Origin: Planctomicrobium piriforme
GTDB taxonomy: Bacteria; Planctomycetota; Planctomycetia; Pirellulales; UBA1268
Length of the DNA: 64,000 bases
Direction of reading: 5' to 3'
Assembly: GCA_945861585.1 (NCBI GenBank)
Contig: CAMAVC010000007.1
Coordinates: 515-64,514 of the forward strand
Below the pieces are notes generated by a model. That model searched no databases. It was not told the DNA's origin and worked only from the letters and a program-made list of their open reading frames with translations. This document shows positions 7,215 through 57,789 of this stretch, piece after piece (the first letter of the stretch is position 1; each line of letters starts with the position of its first letter). The position numbers and the translations under genes were made by a program.

Positions 7215-7288
7215 GGGGGTGTAGCTCAGTTGGTTAGAGCGCCAGCCTGTCACGTTGGAGGCCGCGGGTTCGAGTCCCGTCACCCTCG
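7215..7288 (+). tRNA. tRNA-Asp(GTC)
   Basis: GGGGGTG/CACCCTC acceptor, anticodon arm CCAGC-CT-GTC-AC-GTTGG, TTCGA T-loop; CCA not encoded. Confidence 0.97.
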
Positions 7289-7332
7289 CTTGTTTGCCCG
7301 CGTTCCGTTTCCCCTCCGCCCTCTCGCTCCGG

Positions 7333-8142
7333 ATGCCGGTGCGTCGAACTGCCGTCATCACGGGTGCGGCAAGCGGCCTGGGAGCGGCCCTCACCCGGCT
7401 GCTCGCCGCTGAAGGCTGGAGCCTGGCCCTCGTCGATCTTCCCGAATCGGCGGCCATGCTCGAACGCGTCGCGCCCGCATCGTCCGGAGGGGCGTCCACG
7501 GCGCTCGTGGCCCCATTCGACGTCCGCGACGCTGCCGGCTGGCAGGCGCTCCACGACCGCGCGCGGGCCGCTTGGCCGGCGCTCGACCTGCTCGTGAACG
7601 CCGCCGGCGTCGGAGCCACCGGCGAAGTCGGCCAGCTGCCCGACGCGCAGTGGCGCAGGGTGATCGACACGAATCTGGTCGGCACGGCCCTGGGCTGCGA
7701 GACCTTTCTGCCGTGGCTGCGCGAGCACCCCTCTGGCGCACGCGTCGTAAACGTGGCTTCGATCTCGGGCCTGCTCGGCATTCCCTCGATGGCCGCCTAT
7801 TCGGCGAGCAAGGCCGGTGTGATCGCGCTCTCCGAATCGATCGCGGCCGAATCTCCCGCCGGCCGGCCCGGCGTCACGATCGTGTGCCCCGGCTTCTTCC
7901 GCTCCGGGCTCCTCGACACCTGGCACTTCACCGCCGACCGCGAGGCCCACGAGGCCCGCCGCCGCATGGACGCGACACCGCTCGACTCCGCCGCCCTTGC
8001 GCATCGCATCCGCCGCGCGATCGATCGCGACGAGCGCTACGTGGTCGAAGGCTTCCAGGCCCGCTGCCTGTGGCGGCTCAAGCGTCTCGCGCCGCGTCTC
8101 TCGACGGCGCTCTTACGGCGCGTCTATCGCCGGCTGGGGTGA
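7333..8142 (+). CDS. SDR family NAD(P)-dependent oxidoreductase
   Basis: TGAASGLG, NAAG, NVAS, YSASK. Confidence 0.92.
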   Translation: MPVRRTAVITGAASGLGAALTRLLAAEGWSLALVDLPESAAMLERVAPASSGGASTALVAPFDVRDAAGWQALHDRARAAWPALDLLVNAAGVGATGEVGQLPDAQWRRVIDTNLVGTALGCETFLPWLREHPSGARVVNVASISGLLGIPSMAAYSASKAGVIALSESIAAESPAGRPGVTIVCPGFFRSGLLDTWHFTADREAHEARRRMDATPLDSAALAHRIRRAIDRDERYVVEGFQARCLWRLKRLAPRLSTALLRRVYRRLG

Positions 8143-8269
8143 GGCGTTGCCCGTGCCGATCTGCAAGTGCGCCGGCTCGGGGTTACCCCGTACCATCTCG
8201 CCGGACGCTCGCTGCGGGCTGGCTGTCGCGCCGTCGCCGCCGTCCCGGCGTCGTCTCCGGCTTACAGTC

Positions 8270-8292
8270 GCCGGGCAAAGCCCGGCTCCCAC
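8270..8292 (-). repeat. GTGG-type REP
   Basis: Minus strand reads GTGG-GA-GCCGGGC-TTT-GCCCGGC. Confidence 0.65.
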
Positions 8293-8300
8293 GCCTTCGG

Positions 8301-8383
8301 CGTCAGGGCCGGAAGCCCGGGTGAACACCGGCCGACGGAGGTCGGCCAAGGGAAAATGGCAGGACGCCATGTTTCCCGTGAAG
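8301..8383 (+). repeat. ~85-nt three-hairpin repeat (family 2), copy 1
   Basis: Reverse-complement homolog at 15240-15322. Confidence 0.85.
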
Positions 8384-8436
8384 TGGCCCAGATACGCCGG
8401 CTCAACGGTAGGGGTAACCCCTCGCCTCCCCGTCTG

Positions 8437-8517
8437 GAAGCCCGAGGCGTGAGCCGAAGGGAATACGCGTCGTGTTTCGCCACCGGGGCATCCTCTCGGC
8501 TTACGCCTCGGGCTTTC
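8437..8517. repeat. REP-doublet-like inverted repeat
   Basis: AAGCCCGAGGCGTGAGCCGA ... TCGGCTTACGCCTCGGGCTT arms around a short spacer. Confidence 0.8.
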
Positions 8518-8523
8518 GTTGAA

Positions 8524-8672
8524 GAGGCTTCGGGCTCCCCGTGTCCCGCTCGCCGGCGTATGTGACGAGCGAAGCCATGGATGGCGCAGCGCAGGCAAAT
8601 CCGAGTGAGCCGGAGCCTGGAGGGCGGAGGCGAACGTCCGGCGACGGGACATGGGGAGCCTGAAGCCGGCGC
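8524..8672 (-). repeat. ~150-nt structured repeat copy A2 (complete); a further partial arm at 8682-8720
   Basis: Aligns end to end with copies at 15371, 25580, 25793 and 44206. Confidence 0.92.
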
Positions 8673-8720
8673 GCGCCCAACGAGGCGAACGTCCTGCGAG
8701 GCGGTATGGGGCAACCCCGA

Positions 8721-9863
8721 TCACGCCAGCTCATCCAGCCAGGCGCGGATTTCGTTTTCGTATTCGCTCGCCAGGCCGCCCACGATCAGTTGGCGGTGGA
8801 AGCTCGCCGCGCCCCCCTTGAGGAGGTCGGCGTCTTCGGCGCTCGGGAAGCGCTTGGCCGGATCGGCGGCGATCATGCCCCGGCAGAAGTTCATCAGGAG
8901 CTCGTTGCAGGTGACGTCGGCCGGCAGGAGTTGGGGGAGGCGCTGGCCGAGCGACCGCTTGGCTTCGAGGAGGTCGCGGTAGGACTGGAGGCCGCTGAAC
9001 GGGGGCTGGCCCGAGAGCATCTCGATGAGCACGTAGCCGAGGCTCGCGAGGTCGGAGCGGGGGGAATTCTCCTTGCCTTCGAGCACCTCGGGGGCCGCGT
9101 ACGACGGCGTGCAGGTGCGGTTGGCCGGCATGTCGTCGAGCGCGAGTGCGGAGCCGATGTCGATGATCTTCGCGTTGCCCGTGCGCTTCACCATGATGTT
9201 CGAGGTCTTGATGTCGCCGTGGACGATGCCGTCGCGGTGGAGGGCGGCGAGGGCCGCGAGGCATTCCCGCACGATCGCGATCGCCACGCCCGGCTTGAGC
9301 CGCGACTGCTGCGGGCCCGCCGTCACGATCACGTTGTTGAGGTATTTCCAGCGGTCGTCGCTCACGCTCTGACGGGTGCGGTCGAGGAGTTCCGGAGCCA
9401 GCAGCCGCGAGAGGTCGTAGCCGTCGATCCACTCCATCTCCATGATTCGGATGCGCCGCTGCTCGACGAAGTTTTGCACGTCGAGAAGGTTGTCGTGCTG
9501 GATCTGGGCCACGCGCGACGAAACCTGGGCGATCCGCTCCATCGCCTCGTCGTAGAGGGCTTCGGTTTCGTAGCGTTCCGGAGAGAAGATTTTGAGGGCC
9601 ACGGGGAGCGTGAAGCCGTCGGAGCCGCGCCGGGTGGTGAGGAACACGATCCCCTGCCCGCCCGCCCCCAAACGCCGGCCAAGGTTGTGGTATTCGGTCC
9701 AGTTGAGCCTGCCGCCCGCCACGATATCACCGTAGCGGGCGAGCAGTTCCTCGGGGCAGCGGCTGCCCACTTCGCCCGACACGGAGATCGTGGGCCGACC
9801 CTCCTGATAGAGCGTGGTCGACATCGAGTGGCCGCGGTCGTCGTCGTGGTCGGAGGCGTTCAC
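8721..9863 (-). CDS. Hanks-type Ser/Thr protein kinase, kinase domain only
   Basis: LGAGGQGIVF, VALKIF, HGDIKTSN, DIG, APE; GTG start overlaps the upstream stop (GTGA). Confidence 0.93.
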   Translation of the reverse strand: MNASDHDDDRGHSMSTTLYQEGRPTISVSGEVGSRCPEELLARYGDIVAGGRLNWTEYHNLGRRLGAGGQGIVFLTTRRGSDGFTLPVALKIFSPERYETEALYDEAMERIAQVSSRVAQIQHDNLLDVQNFVEQRRIRIMEMEWIDGYDLSRLLAPELLDRTRQSVSDDRWKYLNNVIVTAGPQQSRLKPGVAIAIVRECLAALAALHRDGIVHGDIKTSNIMVKRTGNAKIIDIGSALALDDMPANRTCTPSYAAPEVLEGKENSPRSDLASLGYVLIEMLSGQPPFSGLQSYRDLLEAKRSLGQRLPQLLPADVTCNELLMNFCRGMIAADPAKRFPSAEDADLLKGGAASFHRQLIVGGLASEYENEIRAWLDELA

Positions 9864-13804: not shown

Positions 13805-15196
13805 ATGCATCAACGTTCCAGGGTTTCGCGACCTCGTGTGTCGTGGGCGAATGTCGCCGCGTCGGCTGCGAGTTGGGCGCTGTCCATCTTTACGACGGCG
13901 TGTCTGGTGGCCGTGGGCTGGTTTGGCCACGCGACACACTGGTCATTCGGCTTGGGAGGGCACTCGGGCGGGCATCACGACCCAGCCGCAGGCCATGGCG
14001 CGCCGCCTGATGCGGAGGCGGCGGGTTCCGCGGCTACCACGGCGGACGGCACGGTCCAGTTTCGCTCCCAGGAGGCGCTCGATCGCACCGGCATCGAGGT
14101 GCAGTCGGTCGAGCAGCGGCCGATGGTGAGCGAGCTCGTCGTCAACGGTGTGGTCGCGTACGACGAGCGGCGGATCGCACAGCTTTCGACGAGGGTGCCG
14201 GGCAGCATCTGGCGGGTGGAGAAGCGGCTCGGCGACCACGTCCATCGAGGCGATGTGTTGCTCGTGATCGACAGCCAGGACGTCGGGCAGCTGAAGGCCG
14301 AGTTTCTCAATGCCCTCGTCGTGCACGAGTCCCGGCGCGAGCAGCTCACCATTCTGGAAGAGGTCAAGAGTGCGGTGATGGGGCGGCAATTGCGCGAGGC
14401 GCGGGCCGCGCTCCGCGAAGCCCGCAACCATCTCGTCAACTCCGAGCAGTCGCTCGTGAATCTTGGCTTCGACATCTCGATCGCCGACTTCGAACAGCTC
14501 GACGACGATGCCCGGGCGGCGAAGATTCGGACGCTCGGGCTGCCGCCCACGTTCACCGCCGCCCTGCCGGGGGATCGCCTGACGTCGAATCTGCTCCCGC
14601 TGTACTCCCCCTTCGACGGGATCGTCGTGGGGCGCGAGGCGGTGATCGGCGAGGTGATCGAGGCCGCCAAGCCGATCTTCGAGGTCGCCGACGTGTCCAC
14701 GATGCTCCTCGTGCTGAACGTCAGCAAGGAGGACGCCGGGAAGGTGGCCATCGGGCAGCGGGTGAAGTTCCGCCCGGACGGCTCGAGCGAGGAATACGCG
14801 AGCACGATCACCTGGATCAGTACGGAGGTGAATGAAGAGACCCGCACGCTGCAGGTCCGGGCCGAGGTTCAGAACGACGCCGAGCCGCTCGCGGCCACCC
14901 GCGGGCTCCGTGCCAATACGTACGGTGCCGGCCGGATCGAGGTCGACCGTCGCGGCACGGCCGTGGTGGTGCCGCGGCAGAGCGTGCAGTGGGACGGCAG
15001 CCGGTGGGTGGTGTTCGTGCCGAGCGGCGAGGCCGCGTTCATGGCCCGGCCCGTACAGCCCGGTGTGCAGGAGGGCGACTTCGTGGAGATCATCGACGCC
15101 GCCGATGGCCAGCCGCTCACGCACGTCGTCGCCGCGGGAAGCCACGTGCTGAAGAGCCAGATCCTGCTCGAGCGCATGGAGCGCGGCGAGCTGTGA
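13805..15196 (+). CDS. RND efflux membrane-fusion protein (CzcB/CusB-like)
   Basis: N-terminal TM and His patch, SPFDG lipoyl-like motif, TRTLQVRA; adjacent to HME-RND permease. Confidence 0.9.
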   Translation: MHQRSRVSRPRVSWANVAASAASWALSIFTTACLVAVGWFGHATHWSFGLGGHSGGHHDPAAGHGAPPDAEAAGSAATTADGTVQFRSQEALDRTGIEVQSVEQRPMVSELVVNGVVAYDERRIAQLSTRVPGSIWRVEKRLGDHVHRGDVLLVIDSQDVGQLKAEFLNALVVHESRREQLTILEEVKSAVMGRQLREARAALREARNHLVNSEQSLVNLGFDISIADFEQLDDDARAAKIRTLGLPPTFTAALPGDRLTSNLLPLYSPFDGIVVGREAVIGEVIEAAKPIFEVADVSTMLLVLNVSKEDAGKVAIGQRVKFRPDGSSEEYASTITWISTEVNEETRTLQVRAEVQNDAEPLAATRGLRANTYGAGRIEVDRRGTAVVVPRQSVQWDGSRWVVFVPSGEAAFMARPVQPGVQEGDFVEIIDAADGQPLTHVVAAGSHVLKSQILLERMERGEL

Positions 15197-15210
15197 TCGC
15201 CACCCCGCCC

Positions 15211-15232
15211 GTAGGACAGGCTTCAGCCTGTC
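15211..15232 (+). repeat. GTAG-type REP
   Basis: GTAG-GACAGGCT-TC-AGCCTGTC; identical at 15331 and 58378 (-). Confidence 0.92.
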
Positions 15233-15239
15233 ATGCTGT

Positions 15240-15322
15240 CTTCACGGGAAGGCTCGGCATCGTGCCGACCTTCCCTTGGCCGACCTCCGTCGACTGGTGC
15301 CTACCCGGCCCTCCGGGCCTGG
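15240..15322 (-). repeat. ~85-nt three-hairpin repeat (family 2), copy 2
   Basis: Homolog of 8301-8383 in the opposite orientation. Confidence 0.85.
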
Positions 15323-15330
15323 CCCGTCAA

Positions 15331-15352
15331 GTAGGACAGGCTTCAGCCTGTC
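15331..15352 (+). repeat. GTAG-type REP
   Basis: Direct copy 120 bp after the first. Confidence 0.92.
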
Positions 15353-15370
15353 GTGCCTCACTCGCCCAAT

Positions 15371-15516
15371 CCGGCTCGGGACTGCCCATGCCCCATCGCC
15401 GGACGTTCGCTTCAGCCATCCTGGCTTTCGCTCACTCGGATTTGCCTGCGCTGCGCCATCCATGGCTTCGCTGGTCAAATACGCCGGCTCACGGGGCACG
15501 GGCAGCCCCTCACCTC
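15371..15516 (+). repeat. ~150-nt structured repeat copy B
   Basis: Shared core TCGCCGGACGTTCGC...TCACTCGGATTTGCCTGCGCTGCGCCATCCATGGC...TACGCCGG. Confidence 0.92.
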
Positions 15517-15558
15517 CCTGTACATCCTCGCCTCCCCGTTTGAGGTGGGACATCGCTC

Positions 15559-18651
<3,093 letters not shown>

Positions 18652-25536: not shown

Positions 25537-25579
25537 ATCGCAGAGCAGCGCATAACGACTCGCACACGGAGCCGGAGAA

Positions 25580-25730
25580 GTGCGCCGGCTGCGGGCCACC
25601 CGATCCCCCTCGCCGGACGTTCACTGCGCCCATCCTGGGCTCCGTTTACTCGGATGTGCCTGCGCTGCGCCATCCATGGCTCCGCTGGTCACAGACGCCG
25701 GCTCAAGGGACACGGGTGGCCCGCAGCCTC
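25580..25730 (+). repeat. ~150-nt structured repeat copy C1
   Basis: Same core; distinct self-complementary arms GGCTGCGGGCCACCCG/CGGGTGGCCCGCAGCC. Confidence 0.92.
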
Positions 25731-25792
25731 CTCGATTCGGTCGTGTTGAGAGTTCGGGGTTCGTGGGATTGCTGAGGCGCCTACGAGTTGGG

Positions 25793-25942
25793 GAGGCGAG
25801 GGGTTGCCCCTGCCGTCGAGACGGCGTATTTGACCAGCGCAGGCAGGATGCCGGAGCGCAGGCAAATCCGAGTGAGCCGGAGCCTGGAGGGCGGAGGCGA
25901 ACGTCCGGTGAGACGGTACGGGGTAACCCCGAGCCGGCGCAC
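25793..25942 (-). repeat. ~150-nt structured repeat copy C2
   Basis: Inverted relative to C1; arms match copy D. Confidence 0.92.
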
Positions 25943-25999
25943 TTCGCTGGCTCCGATTGCGGGTGGTTATCGAGTGCGCGACCGCGTACAACACGCTGC

Positions 26000-42258: not shown

Positions 42259-42984
42259 ATGGAACTCTGGCCAGCGATCGATCTGCGGGGCGGGAAATGC
42301 GTGAGGCTTCTCCAGGGTGACTATGCCCGGGAGACGGTCTTCGGCGACGATCCTCTCGCGATGGCGCGGCAGTTCGTCGCCGCGGGAGCGCGGCGGCTGC
42401 ACATCGTCGACCTCGACGGCGCCAAGGCCGGTGAGCCCGTGCAGATCGATCTGATCGAGCGGATGGCGAAGGCCGCCGGCGTGCCCTGCCAGGTGGGCGG
42501 CGGCATTCGTTCACTCGACACCGCGCGACGCTATGCCGCGGCGGGTGTTGCCCGCATCGTCGTCGGCAGCATCGCGATCGAGCAGCCAGCGCTGCTCGAG
42601 ACCATGGCGACCGCCTTGCCCGGCAGGATCGTGCTGGGGCTCGATGCCCGTGATGGCAACGTCGCCGTGCGGGGCTGGGTGGAGACGAGCCGGCTCACGG
42701 CGCTCGAGGTGGCCCGGCGGTCGGAGCACCTGCCGTTGGCCGCCCTCGTCTACACCGACATCGCGACCGATGGCACGCTGGGTGGCCCCAACCTGGCGGC
42801 GCTCGACGAGATGATCCGCGGCGTGAAGCTGCCGGTCGTCGCTTCCGGGGGCATCGCGGAGGCAGATGACCTCACGCGCGTGGCAGGGATCGGTGCCGCA
42901 GGCTGCATCGTGGGGCGGGCACTCTACGACGGGGGGCTCTCGCTCGCCGCCGCCGCGGCCGCCTGCGGCGAGGGCCCCGCCTGA
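42259..42984 (+). CDS. hisA: ProFAR isomerase
   Basis: [29 protein letters not shown]. Confidence 0.95.
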
Positions 42985-43183
42985 AGCCAGCCGTCCGGAT
43001 CCGGCAGACTTCGCCCGTTCTGCCGAGACCTCCAGGGTCGGGCTGCGGAGCGGAAAAACCCCGAGGATCACTCAATTTTTCCCGCGTCCGAGGCCGACCG
43101 TACGGATGGCGTTCCGGGGCATCGACAGGGCGGACGCCGCCCTGTGTTGCTGGCGGCGGAGCCCGATCCTACGATCCAATCTC

Positions 43184-44185
43184 ATGGCCACAGACGTCCG
43201 TCTCAAGGAGCAGTTGCCCGAGCTCACCCGACGGATCGTGGAGACCTACCAGGCGGTCCCCACGATCCACTATCTCGGTCACTGCCCGCTCCCGAACTAC
43301 GAGTCGATCATCGCGGCTTGCGAGGATCTGAAGGAGATTCTCTATCCCGGCTATCGGCGCCGGGAGAATCTCCACCTCGGCAACGTCACCTACCATGTGG
43401 GTGATCTCATCGACGGGCTGCATGACAAGCTCACCACGCAGATCGGCCGGGCGCTCCGGCACAGTGTCGCCGCGCAGCATGCGGCGGCCGAGCACGGTGT
43501 CGAGCCCCCTGCCCTGTCCGACGCCGTGCAGCACTGCACCGAGGAGGCCGACTTCGAAGCCCTCGGACAGGCCAAGGCGGTCGAATTCCTCGAACGCATC
43601 CCCGACCTCCGCCGGGTGCTCGCCACCGACGTCCAAGCTGCCTACGATGGCGATCCGGCCGTGCGGACGCTCGACGAGGTGATCTTCTGCTACCCCGGCC
43701 TGGAGGCCGTGACGATCCACCGCCTGGCCCACCTCCTGCACGCGCTCGAGGTGCCGCTCATCCCCCGGATGATGGCCGAATGGGCCCACGCTCGCACCGG
43801 CATCGACATCCATCCCGGCGCCACGATCGGCGACCACTTCTTCATCGATCACGGCACGGGCGTCGTCATCGGCGAGACCTGCGAGATCGGCAGCCGAGTG
43901 AAGCTCTACCAGGGCGTCACGCTCGGCGCACTCTCCTTCCAGACCGACGGCGACGGCAACCTCGTCCGCGGCACGAAGCGGCATCCGACCATCGAAGACC
44001 GTGTGGTGATCTACGCCAACGCCACCGTCCTTGGCGGCTCGACGCGCATCGGCCACGACTCCGTGGTCGGCTCCAACGTCTGGCTCACCCGCTCGATCGA
44101 CCCGCACACCACGGTCGTCCTCGAACGGCCAAAGCTCCGGATGCGCGGCGAAGCCCCGAGCCCGGAAGCGGACTACCAGATCTAG
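43184..44185 (+). CDS. cysE: Serine O-acetyltransferase
   Basis: [32 protein letters not shown]. Confidence 0.93.
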
Positions 44186-44205
44186 CGCGGGTGTCGTCAG
44201 TACGC

Positions 44206-44356
44206 GTGCGCCGGCTCGGGGTTACCCCGTACCGTCTCGCCGGACGTTCGCTGCGCCCATCCTGGGCTTCACTCACTCGGATGTGCCTGCGCTCCGGCAT
44301 CCATGCCTGCGCTGGTCACATACGCCGTCTCAACGGCAGGGGTAACCCCTCGCCTC
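44206..44356 (+). repeat. ~150-nt structured repeat copy D; partial inverted arm D2 at 44537-44574
   Basis: Full alignment with the other copies; D2 matches the end of A2. Confidence 0.92.
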
Positions 44357-44586
44357 TCGTTCTCGAAGGCGCTTGGAACTTTCGGCGGAGACGGTCGGTG
44401 GGCACGCGCAGAAGAAGGGAGTCCTTGAGGACTATGGGCGTCCGATCAAAACCCACGAGTTGTGGACTCTCAAGACGACCGGATTCGAGCATGCCTACCG
44501 CCGGCTCCGAATCCGGGCAATTAACTGCCGCCCTGCCGTCCGGCGACGGGATACGGGGAGCCCGAAGCCGGCGCGTCCAACGTCTC

Positions 44587-45852
44587 CTACCGTGGCTCGG
44601 TGCTCATCACCTGGCCGTCGATCACGACGCCGGTGCAGTGCGTCGTGTATTCGAAGGGGTCGCCGTCGAAGATCGCGATGTCGGCGTCCTTGCCCACTTC
44701 GAGCGAACCGACCCGATCGGCCACGCCGATGATTTTCGCCGCGTCGATCGTGATCGCGGCCAGGGCTTGGGGGAACGACAGGCCGTGGGCCGCGGCGAGG
44801 CCGGCCTCGAAGAGCACGACACGGGTCTTGGGCACGTACGACTCGTAGCCGCTCTGGAGAGCGATGGGGATGCCGGCCTTCGCGAGCGTCGCAGCGGTCT
44901 CGAAGCTCAGGTTTTCGGTTTCGCCGCCGCCGCCGGCACGTCGCATCGTGGGGTGCACGATCACGGGCACCCCTGCCGCCTTGATCTGGTCGGCGAGCAG
45001 GTAGGCCTCGGCAGCCGAGTCGAGCACGACGCGGAGCTGGAATTCGTCGGCGATCCTGAGGGCCGAGGCGATGTCGGTGGCCCGGTCGGCCGTGACGAGG
45101 AGCGGCCAGTCGCGGGCGAGCACGTTCCCGAGCGCTTCGAGCCGGAGGTCGGGGTCGGGGCGTTTCGATTCGTCGGCGAGCTGCCGTTTACGGGCGTACT
45201 CACGGGCTTTTACGAATTCCGCCCGCAGCATCGCCACCGCCTTGCTGCGGGTGCCGGGCGATTTCGTGTCGGCGCCGTCGCCCGTGGCCCGGGCCGAGTC
45301 GCCGAGCGTGGCGGCCACCATCGCCACGGGCCGGAGCACGGCTGCGTCGGCCGTGGTGCCGGCAAGCTTCACCACCATGGTCTGGCCTGCCACGAGCGCC
45401 CCCGGAGCGTGGCCGGTGTGGATCGTCGTGACGCCGAAGCCCCGGAGCCACTCGATGAGCCGCTCCTGCGGGTTGTAGGCGTCGATCGCGCGCAATTCGG
45501 GCTGGATCGCCTCGACAGGGTCGAGCTGGTCTTGGTCTTGCGGCTGATTGAGATAGCCACTCAGGCCGACGACGCTGTGTGCGTCCACCAGGCCGGGCGT
45601 CACGATGGCTCCGCGCAGTTCCCGTGCGTGTGGTGGGATCGGTGTCGTGGCGGCAGCACCGACGGCACGGATTTTCCCTCCCTCGATCACCACCACGCCG
45701 GCGGCGATCGCGGGGCCGGCCATCGTGTGCACCACGTCGCCGCGCACCACGAGCGTCTCGCCGCCGTGGCAGAGGCTCGCCCACGCCAGACACACGCCGC
45801 CGGCAGCGGCAGCCAGATGTCCGAGGTGGATTTCGCGACGGCCACTGCTCAT
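44587..45852 (-). CDS. Secreted amidohydrolase-fold protein with degenerate metal site
   Basis: PGLVDAHSV, GSLEVGKDAD; ATGA overlap with the upstream paralog. Confidence 0.88.
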   Translation of the reverse strand: MSSGRREIHLGHLAAAAGGVCLAWASLCHGGETLVVRGDVVHTMAGPAIAAGVVVIEGGKIRAVGAAATTPIPPHARELRGAIVTPGLVDAHSVVGLSGYLNQPQDQDQLDPVEAIQPELRAIDAYNPQERLIEWLRGFGVTTIHTGHAPGALVAGQTMVVKLAGTTADAAVLRPVAMVAATLGDSARATGDGADTKSPGTRSKAVAMLRAEFVKAREYARKRQLADESKRPDPDLRLEALGNVLARDWPLLVTADRATDIASALRIADEFQLRVVLDSAAEAYLLADQIKAAGVPVIVHPTMRRAGGGGETENLSFETAATLAKAGIPIALQSGYESYVPKTRVVLFEAGLAAAHGLSFPQALAAITIDAAKIIGVADRVGSLEVGKDADIAIFDGDPFEYTTHCTGVVIDGQVMSTEPR

Positions 45853-57576: not shown

Positions 57577-57621
57577 TGGAACACAAGGGAGAAACACCCG
57601 GCACATGAGGGCCGAGGAGGT

Positions 57622-57711
57622 GGCCTCGGGACTGCGAGGCAAGCCCCCCGGCGCGTGAGGGCGTTTGAAACGGCCTCAGGAACGCAAGGCAAGCCCCCCG
57701 GCGCGTGAGGG
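57622..57711. repeat. Imperfect 40-bp direct repeat, two copies with a 50-bp period
   Basis: GGCCTC...AGGCAAGCCCCCCGGCGCGTGAGGG at 57622-57661 and 57672-57711. Confidence 0.85.
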
Positions 57712-57718
57712 ATAAAAA

Positions 57719-57789
57719 CTGGGGAACTAGGATTCGAACCTAGACTAACTGGTTCAGAGCCAGTCGTGCTACCGTTACACCATTCCCCA
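57719..57789 (-). tRNA. tRNA-Gln(CTG)
   Basis: TGGGGAA/TTCCCCA acceptor, ACTGG-CT-CTG-AA-CCAGT, GGTTCGAATCC. Confidence 0.96.

Follow-up and report, generated by a model that had tools for sequence, protein, structure and literature searches.

Why should a repeat that is scattered through a bacterial genome keep GGA in its hairpin loops, and what would read it? The question is raised by an intergenic gap (8143–8720) in a 64,000-nt stretch of the Planctomicrobium piriforme assembly GCA_945861585.1 (contig CAMAVC010000007.1, positions 515–64,514; hereafter the window), which is filled with such repeats between genes called at 7255–8142 (+, doubtful) and 8721–9863 (−). A preliminary description had proposed that the main repeat, a 150-nt unit with two hairpins, is a dispersed RNA ligand of the regulator CsrA. 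Our analysis leads to a tentative answer. This non-coding element of about 150 nt may be the planctomycete equivalent of the Pseudomonas TwoAYGGAY repeats, a reading to which we give slightly less than an even chance, and the earlier CsrA-ligand interpretation as a whole is partly supported.

Five complete copies of the repeat were located in the window with nhmmer (Table 1). Direct reading of the sequence finds GGA in all ten of their core loops, exactly where the preliminary description had placed it. Beyond the two hairpins of the copy at 8514–8677, GCC-ATGGAT-GGC is read in the reverse complement of 15452–15466 and of 25666–25680, GCC-AGGAT-GGC in that of 15412–15426, and CCC-AGGAT-GGG in that of 25626–25640 and of 44253–44267, while positions 25839–25853 and 25879–25893 read GGC-AGGAT-GCC and GCC-TGGAG-GGC, respectively. 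The stem of hairpin 1 is swapped to GGC-ATGGAT-GCC in the reverse complement of 44293–44307. GGA occurs in the window at a frequency of 0.014 per position per strand. By rough arithmetic a 5–6-nt loop would hold it about once in 20 cases and two loops on one strand about once in 200, a figure that is valid for the founder only since the copies share descent. The GGA-loop observation is real and beyond chance.

The window copies belong to a large family. A profile built from 76 full BLAST hits gave 303 nhmmer matches in the host genome (3.67 Mb, 157 contigs, 67.5% G+C), 193 of which are near full length (102 on one strand, 91 on the other), with a total footprint of ~40.5 kb. Within this genome most family columns reach 90% identity or more, and several subfamilies are present. 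Beyond the host, a 152-nt query found matches in 17 of 31 genomes of the order, host included: the carriers are all 15 congeners and, within the same family, one of three further genera; the 12 genomes that represent other families of the order gave no match. A pattern anchored outside the loops, used for the cross-species search, retrieved more than 100 public stretches of metagenome-assembled genomes (MAGs) titled Pirellulales, Planctomycetia or Planctomycetota, among the matches listed. Phage carriage was looked for with the same 150-nt anchor pattern, and viral contigs gave no match.

GGA is retained in these copies to a degree that its surroundings are not. Across the 193 host copies the three bases are kept in 192, 193 and 193 cases in loop 1 and in 188, 192 and 192 cases in loop 2, with neighbouring loop positions and stem columns varying while GGA stays constant. 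Among 78 distinct copies from other species, GGA is found in loop 1 of 73 and in loop 2 of 68. Loop 1 reads AGGAT in 30 of these and ATGGAT in 28, its exceptions across species being mostly ACGA; loop 2 reads TGGAG in 25, AGGAT in 25 and ATGGAT in six. The 31 copies of a sister genus (g4) have GGA in 31 of their first loops and 25 of their second, and outside the host genus GGA is kept at a copy identity of only 72–81%. An alignment of 79 copies (A2; the five window copies and 74 from other species) contains eight invariant columns that the search pattern did not fix; three fall in the GGA motifs (G67, A68 and G107) and another is the G that closes loop 2. Hence loop GGA outlasts stem changes across genera and is more conserved than its neighbours, yet it is not uniquely conserved.

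The loops are presented by a fold that is itself maintained. The consensus structure consists of a long terminal stem around two hairpins, and RNAalifold assigns 38 pairs to A2, 29 of which have changes on both sides and are thus compensatory. In total, 94.0% of A2 cells are paired, compared with 78.5% in shuffled alignments, and the covariation score is 0.433 compared with 0.163, a value reached by none of 500 shuffles. As the A2 sequences are related the shuffle control overstates significance, but a slid control, in which pairing partners are shifted by 1–3 columns, is free of this weakness and gives covariation of 0.03–0.07. These figures replace the totals of a first column-pair screen, which returned 432 candidate pairs and was too permissive. 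The terminal stem varies between subfamilies by compensation, with the core conserved; within hairpin 1, stem columns 62/71 are C-G in 129 and G-C in 64 of the 193 host copies. A pseudoknot, in which loop GGA might pair with an invariant TCC at columns 87–89 or 124–126, was considered by eye alone and not adopted; in the cross-species set these columns are constant by construction of the anchor pattern. The copy at 8514–8677 has the same long basal stem and two inner hairpins, with an RNAfold energy of −97.3 kcal/mol on the + strand and −85.1 kcal/mol on the − strand.

This difference between strands is general. Folding favours the GGA strand in 191 of 193 host copies (mean −90.3 versus −78.1 kcal/mol) and in 28 of the 31 copies from g4. 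Consensus-pair cells contain 231 G·T against 25 A·C combinations, or 155 against 25 once a single conserved G·U pair, kept in 76 of 78 sequences, is left aside. Folding energy and the G·T excess both indicate that pairing is kept on the GGA strand, so that the single-stranded form under selection is the GGA strand. Whether this is RNA or single-stranded DNA is a closer call. The pair flanking loop 2 is A-U in 36 cases and U·G in 26, with GGA left as a triloop, and because of this closing pair and the conserved G·U pair we lean modestly towards RNA.

Copies are not placed at random with respect to genes, whose positions are approximate, coming from our own caller based on G+C at third codon positions (GC3; 2,080 genes, 73% of bases). 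The 193 full copies comprise 68 in convergent gaps, 79 in tandem gaps, five in divergent gaps, four inside called genes and 37 at contig edges, against a background of 1,923 intergenic gaps of which 341 are convergent, 1,239 tandem and 343 divergent. Convergent gaps are thereby enriched (68/152 placed copies versus 341/1,923) and divergent gaps depleted (5/152 versus 343/1,923). Copies that neighbour each other within 400 nt are arranged head-to-head (−+) in 59 cases and tail-to-tail (+−) in none, the gaps between them clustering at ~0–5 nt and 74–81 nt. By their orientation, 37 contig-edge copies fit as halves of such doublets and seven do not.

The closest known system is the TwoAYGGAY RNA motif (Rfam RF01731), as extended in Pseudomonas in the main text of a recent preprint (bioRxiv 10.64898/2026.09.22.753630). 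There, two AYGGAY-loop hairpins are described on a basal stem, with a median of 11–23 copies per genome and up to 202, doublets that are divergent in 68.4% of cases and arrays of repetitive extragenic palindromes (REPs) at a fixed position; binding of the RNAs to Csr/Rsm proteins is proposed and unproven, and planctomycetes go unmentioned in that main text. The planctomycete repeat has in common with these elements two A(Y)GGA(Y) hairpins on an elongated basal stem, a multi-copy habit, an excess of divergent doublets and REP-type repeats at a fixed position. The two differ in phylum, TwoAYGGAY being found in Pseudomonadota or Bacillota, and in their loops, the planctomycete repeat fitting AYGGAY literally in some copies only and its loop 2 often being UGGAG. 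They also differ in doublet gaps (~0–5 or ~74 nt compared with the median of 249 bp given by the preprint) and in the side on which the REP-like module lies, 5′ (head) here and downstream in the preprint's account of TwoAYGGAY. The RF01731 model had no match in the window at its gathering threshold (the scan gave only two tRNAs) and none in 8100–8760 at E values up to 10; its best score in the genome, 19.3 bits against a gathering score of 43, lies off the repeat. Homology and convergence are indistinguishable as the basis of the resemblance. That no such system had been described holds for planctomycetes, for which our literature search found no description of such repeats, but the same idea has been printed for the Pseudomonas elements in the preprint.

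We propose that the element is non-autonomous and mobile-element-like, and that selection acts on one single strand, the purine-rich GGA strand. This strand is predicted to fold into a basal stem of ~30 pairs bearing two hairpins, whose apical loops, A(N)GGAU and UGGAG/AGGAU, stay constant as the stems change by compensation. The two loops may then be protein-recognition sites.

CsrA is the candidate reader. The host has five csrA genes, as the earlier interpretation needed, all being PF02599 matches over the Pfam cut-off with the usual N-terminal MLVL(S/T)R and β5 (V/I)HR.E stretches. One of the five lies beside fliW (G000:C108:8210–8812), G000 being the host genome; the other four paralogs are without a known antagonist. 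Loop 1, C-A(U)GGAU-G, fits what we take to be the forms of CsrA sites, CANGGANG and CAGGAUG, and one CsrA dimer could bridge two sites ~40 nt apart. We know of no Csr/Rsm antagonist RNA from Planctomycetota, although csrA is strongly multiplied in this order, with 2–13 copies in each of the 31 genomes searched. The CsrA-ligand idea is a plausible and reasonable hypothesis, one already in print for TwoAYGGAY. That the recognizing protein is one or more of the five paralogs we nevertheless judge, for this step alone, to be possible but somewhat unlikely.

Several observations weigh against this reading of the repeat. About 25 other columns, for example 53–61 and 119–131, match the invariance of GGA within this genome, so the proposed comparison of GGA with neighbouring positions comes out in its favour without making it the sole constraint; moreover, the copies share descent, and all such counts overstate the number of independent events. 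CGA replaces GGA, as ACGA, in nine of 78 loop-2 sequences from other species, and in the third loop of a second hairpin family of the same mosaic, the 85-nt unit, ACGA (32/61) is the commonest form, ahead of GGA (28/61). A strict CsrA site should not tolerate CGA for GGA. The Rfam models for TwoAYGGAY and for the Csr/Rsm small RNAs (sRNAs) all stay below threshold. The proposed co-occurrence of the repeat with csrA is uninformative, since csrA is universal (31/31 genomes of the order, 14 of them repeat-free, with 2–13 copies each); its number is 2–5 in carriers and 2–13 in non-carriers.

Placement tells in the same direction. Of 190 copies, 138 point their tail (the 3′ terminus of the GGA strand) at the 3′ end of a gene, with a median distance of 41 nt; in 89 of these 138 the stop codon is within 60 nt, and the head end is seldom near a gene. 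A gene that ends near the tail usually has the GGA strand as its antisense strand, and its mRNA would consequently carry the TCC strand. Single copies in tandem gene contexts are antisense in 36 cases and sense in 20; these replace a first count relative to the nearest 3′ end (93 antisense versus 21 sense), which was inflated by doublets and contig-edge halves. The idea of a simple untranslated-region module of the adjacent gene thus falls, and GGA-strand RNA needs another source, which may be read-through into the distal copy of a doublet, transcription from the facing gene where two genes converge or an unrecognized promoter. Doublet gaps of ~0–5 nt leave no room for a promoter between copies, and a scan for one promoter type, σ70-like, found none in 8100–8760 or 44150–44620. 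Nor was a terminator-like site found flanking the unit, and the window copy has no U tract after its stem, whichever strand is read. The antisense placement and the ACGAU variants make the CsrA reading the weaker. In the assembled contigs of four metatranscriptome runs, pieces of the repeat have a summed depth far above that of flanking genes, but this excess is expected from copy number alone and the contigs are strandless, and nothing is concluded from it on expression.

In its strongest form the CsrA reading would make the repeat a self-spreading ligand RNA, with ~300 two-site units behind stop codons acting as a genome-distributed decoy for the four FliW-less paralogs. The decoy RNA would be made by read-through or antisense transcription, its capacity would shift with copy number, and its origin would be either independent of Pseudomonas TwoAYGGAY or a matter of very old shared ancestry. 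We regard this version, its origin included, as improbable.

Comparison of orthologous sites shows copies that are present in some genomes and absent from others. The array at 8143–8720 is wholly absent from the orthologous gap of G011, which measures 12 nt, and there is no 150-nt match in that of G009 (237 nt) or of G002. The copy at 15364–15518 is shared with G009 at the same site (Table 1) and absent in the closest relative, G004. In G004 (L141, compared with window 15180–15575) the intergenic region begins like the right end of the repeat and continues as unrelated sequence, which suggests that sequence was replaced or partly deleted there and that the site is not cleanly empty. Together with copy number and spread, presence and absence at these sites bear out the dispersed, mobile-looking character first ascribed to the repeat. 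No autonomous parent with the same ends was found in the assembly, all 13 end pairs enclosing 161–268 nt, and no target duplication was obvious by eye (unscored) in 57 flanks from the 60 best-scoring copies.

A different module of the mosaic, a 74-nt palindromic hairpin, is REPIN-like. It has 195 non-overlapping matches in the genome and also contains the word [A/T]GGATG. Within 100 nt, it accompanies the head end of the 150-nt unit in 87 of 193 copies and the tail end in eight. Two Y1_Tnp genes are present in the genome, one of which (C106:4551–5063, 171 aa) is RAYT-like and is flanked on both sides by the module in a REPIN/RAYT-type arrangement; its product scores 30.9 bits against a Pfam Y1_Tnp cut-off of 23 and falls below the NCBIfam RAYT cut-off (32 versus 80 bits). 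Within G000:C106:4340–5340 (L015/L130), half-modules lie upstream of this gene and an 85-nt unit downstream. The module is abundant in G000, G004 and G013 only, and genes of the C106 type (>90% identity) occur in G000 and G004 only, whereas the C9-type Y1 gene occurs in eight of 15 congeners and also in a repeat-free genus. The carriers G005, G007 and G018, with many copies each, gave no match to PF01797, although with assemblies 94–97% complete its absence is not proven. On this distribution of gene, module and PF01797 we rejected RAYT as the mobilizer of the 150-nt unit, which neither flanks nor co-occurs with a RAYT gene. Within these assemblies the 150-nt family is older and wider than the RAYT system, and independent of it.

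These data bear on the explanation that the repeat is a DNA-level mobile element, its fold being a single-stranded DNA structure for a transposase or nuclease in the style of REP/RAYT or IS200/IS605, its loops the recognition site of that enzyme and CsrA uninvolved. Hundreds of near-identical copies in several subfamilies, their presence and absence at orthologous sites, the lack of obvious target duplications and the polar attachment to the REPIN-like hairpin, itself found on both sides of a RAYT-like gene and containing [A/T]GGATG, all agree with it, as do the 59 head-to-head doublets against no tail-to-tail ones, head-to-head dimers being the usual form in the account of REPs in PMC3733652. 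However, the repeat does not track either type of Y1 transposase, no longer element with the same ends is present in the assembly, and the conserved G·T pair and T·G closing pair of the triloop would fit RNA better than DNA. We consider this explanation rather unlikely.

The distances to stop codons suggest instead an mRNA 3′-end element that works on the TCC strand of the upstream gene's transcript, as a terminator, protecting hairpin or read-through barrier, the loop sequence being incidental. Enrichment in convergent and depletion in divergent gaps would follow the same logic, related lone hairpins lie 1–3 nt from stop codons in six cases, and the TCC strand keeps a folding energy of about −78 kcal/mol. 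Yet pairing is kept on the other strand, the conserved G·U pair would appear in the mRNA as mismatched A·C, a U tract is missing in the window copy, and invariant GGA loops and ~25 core columns amid drifting stems are left unexplained. A 3′-end element is quite improbable on this evidence. Least probable, and very unlikely, is that the loops are functionless, GGA having been inherited from a recent founder in a family of neutral junk: the ≥90% identity of most columns in the host and the ~25 others as invariant as GGA would allow this, but GGA persists at 72–81% identity in another genus and in many species where adjacent loop positions and stems have changed. A counterpart of TwoAYGGAY remains the reading we favour.

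The repeat also differs from each of the other element classes with which it shares features. Like REP, BIME and REPIN-RAYT elements it is extragenic near gene 3′ ends, forms inverted head-to-head dimers and occurs in mosaic with short repeats, and the genome holds a RAYT-like gene flanked by palindromic units; in its passages on REP families, PMC3733652 describes head-to-head dimers as dominant and REPs as occurring in Planctomycetes. A REP is, however, a 20–40-nt palindrome and not a 150-nt branched fold with a conserved core, and REPIN-like behaviour is confined to the 74-nt module. With CsrB, CsrC, RsmX, RsmY and RsmZ it shares GGA in hairpin loops and csrA in the host. Those sRNAs are encoded by one or a few gene copies, each with a regulated promoter and a terminator of its own, and contain 4–22 GGA sites; the planctomycete repeat has two sites per unit, ~300 units and no promoter or terminator that we found. 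Csr/Rsm Rfam models had no match on the 150-nt unit in 8100–8760, the sole sub-threshold hit (PrrB_RsmZ) falling on the 85-nt unit. Correia, ERIC and RUP elements, which resemble miniature inverted-repeat transposable elements, are non-autonomous, 100–200 nt long and present in many intergenic copies with long complementary ends. The repeat matches them in size, complementary ends, non-autonomy and intergenic abundance, but we saw no target duplication and could find no insertion sequence with matching ends that might be its parent. Unlike a transposase-bound inverted repeat, its ends vary by compensation and its interior is conserved.

Table 1. Repeat features of the window, in window coordinates
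Feature	Position	Strand	Basis and remarks
Full 150-nt copy	8514–8677	+	nhmmer, profile (HMM) columns 4–167, score 160.3; GGA strand is +
Hairpin 1, GCC-ATGGAT-GGC, GGA at 8579–8581	8574–8585	+	Direct reading; family columns 61–72
Hairpin 2, GCC-TGGAG-GGC	8615–8625	+	Direct reading; alignment A2 pair 177–182
74-nt palindromic hairpin module, REPIN-like, between two inverted copies	8441–8515		Genome matches
Variant copy in opposite orientation; repeat ends at 8165–8217 and 8389–8440	8165–8440	−	
85-nt three-hairpin unit, loops CGGAA, GGAG and AGGAC	8296–8385	+	42 copies aligned
Extra right-end fragment of the repeat	8685–8728	+	BLAST copy-number profile
Full 150-nt copy	15364–15518	−	nhmmer; also at the orthologous site of the congener G009 (L142 2699–2855)
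85-nt unit, third loop ACGAT	15235–15330	−	Direct reading and alignment
Full copy, left member of a head-to-head (divergent) doublet	25577–25738	−	nhmmer
Full copy, right-hand partner in the doublet (43-nt gap)	25782–25944	+	nhmmer
Full copy, swapped hairpin-1 stem GGC-ATGGAT-GCC	44203–44366	−	nhmmer and direct reading
Conserved upstream module, type U1, joined to the head of the copy at 44203–44366	44367–44530	−	

The flagged gap itself is a mosaic of dispersed repeats of ~560 nt, the parts of which were separated by their BLAST copy-number profile. In the variant copy at 8165–8440 the core is swapped for ~172 nt that contain an 85-nt unit, and the genome has eleven end pairs of this kind with an interior of 161–169 nt; in this copy the ends imply one strand and the GGA loops of the unit lie on the other. 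The right-end fragment at 8685–8728 reaches the stop codon of the convergent gene 8721–9863 (−). A tRNA gene at 7215–7288 overlaps the start of the open reading frame 7255–8142, the left flanking gene called from GC3, and both this gene call and the label 'convergent' for the gap are uncertain as a result. The copy at 44203–44366 has its tail 18 nt past the stop of gene 42866–44185 (+). Modules of types U1 and U2, ~150 nt each, are found at the head of 48 of 174 copies and make composites of at least 300 nt. Elsewhere in the window, two tandem 50-nt units that are 74% alike (57597–57696) lie just upstream of a tRNA gene, 57719–57789 (−).

The 85-nt unit is a three-hairpin family of its own, with abundant compensatory stem change in the 42 aligned copies. 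Its CGGAA, GGAG and AGGAC loops at 8300–8375, and the ACGAT of the copy at 15235–15330, are as first described. It had been called unrelated to the 150-nt repeat; it is a separate family, but one that sits inside the same mosaic, within the variant copy. Likewise, stems that change while GGA is kept characterize the 150-nt unit, whereas ACGAT is no lone exception in the 85-nt family, which keeps A(C/G)GAU and not strict GGA. The unit matches PrrB_RsmZ weakly and below threshold, at 17.5 bits (gathering score 44; E 0.1). Hairpins of the form CAAG–long hairpin–GTGAA make a family of 61 genome matches with highly variable, compensating stems, loops of ACGAT (27), AGGAT (22), ATGGAT (4) and ACGAC (4), and six cases in which the 3′ flank ends only 1–3 nt away from a convergent gene's stop codon. 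A lone long hairpin of this family, not of the 150-nt repeat, lies at G000:C12:5052–5101; its top, GGCC-ATGGAT-GGCC, gives the best RF01731 score in the genome, which is below threshold. A count of hairpin-loop enrichment outside the families ranked ATGGAT first of 90 permutations, with ten intergenic cases, but these are mostly diverged members of the 85-nt family and were set aside as not independent evidence.

Repeats that lie tens of bases from stop codons are of practical relevance for the assembly and annotation of these freshwater MAGs; in the host assembly, 58 of 314 contig ends are within 200 nt of the 150-nt repeat or the 74-nt module. For the family as a whole, the appearance in a distant phylum of a TwoAYGGAY-like architecture, with two A(N)GGAU loops on a basal stem, doublets that diverge and REPs nearby, argues for selection on the design. 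The planctomycete repeat would offer a second, independent system in which to address CsrA binding and spread and, if the decoy version were true, mobility and regulation would be coupled in one element.

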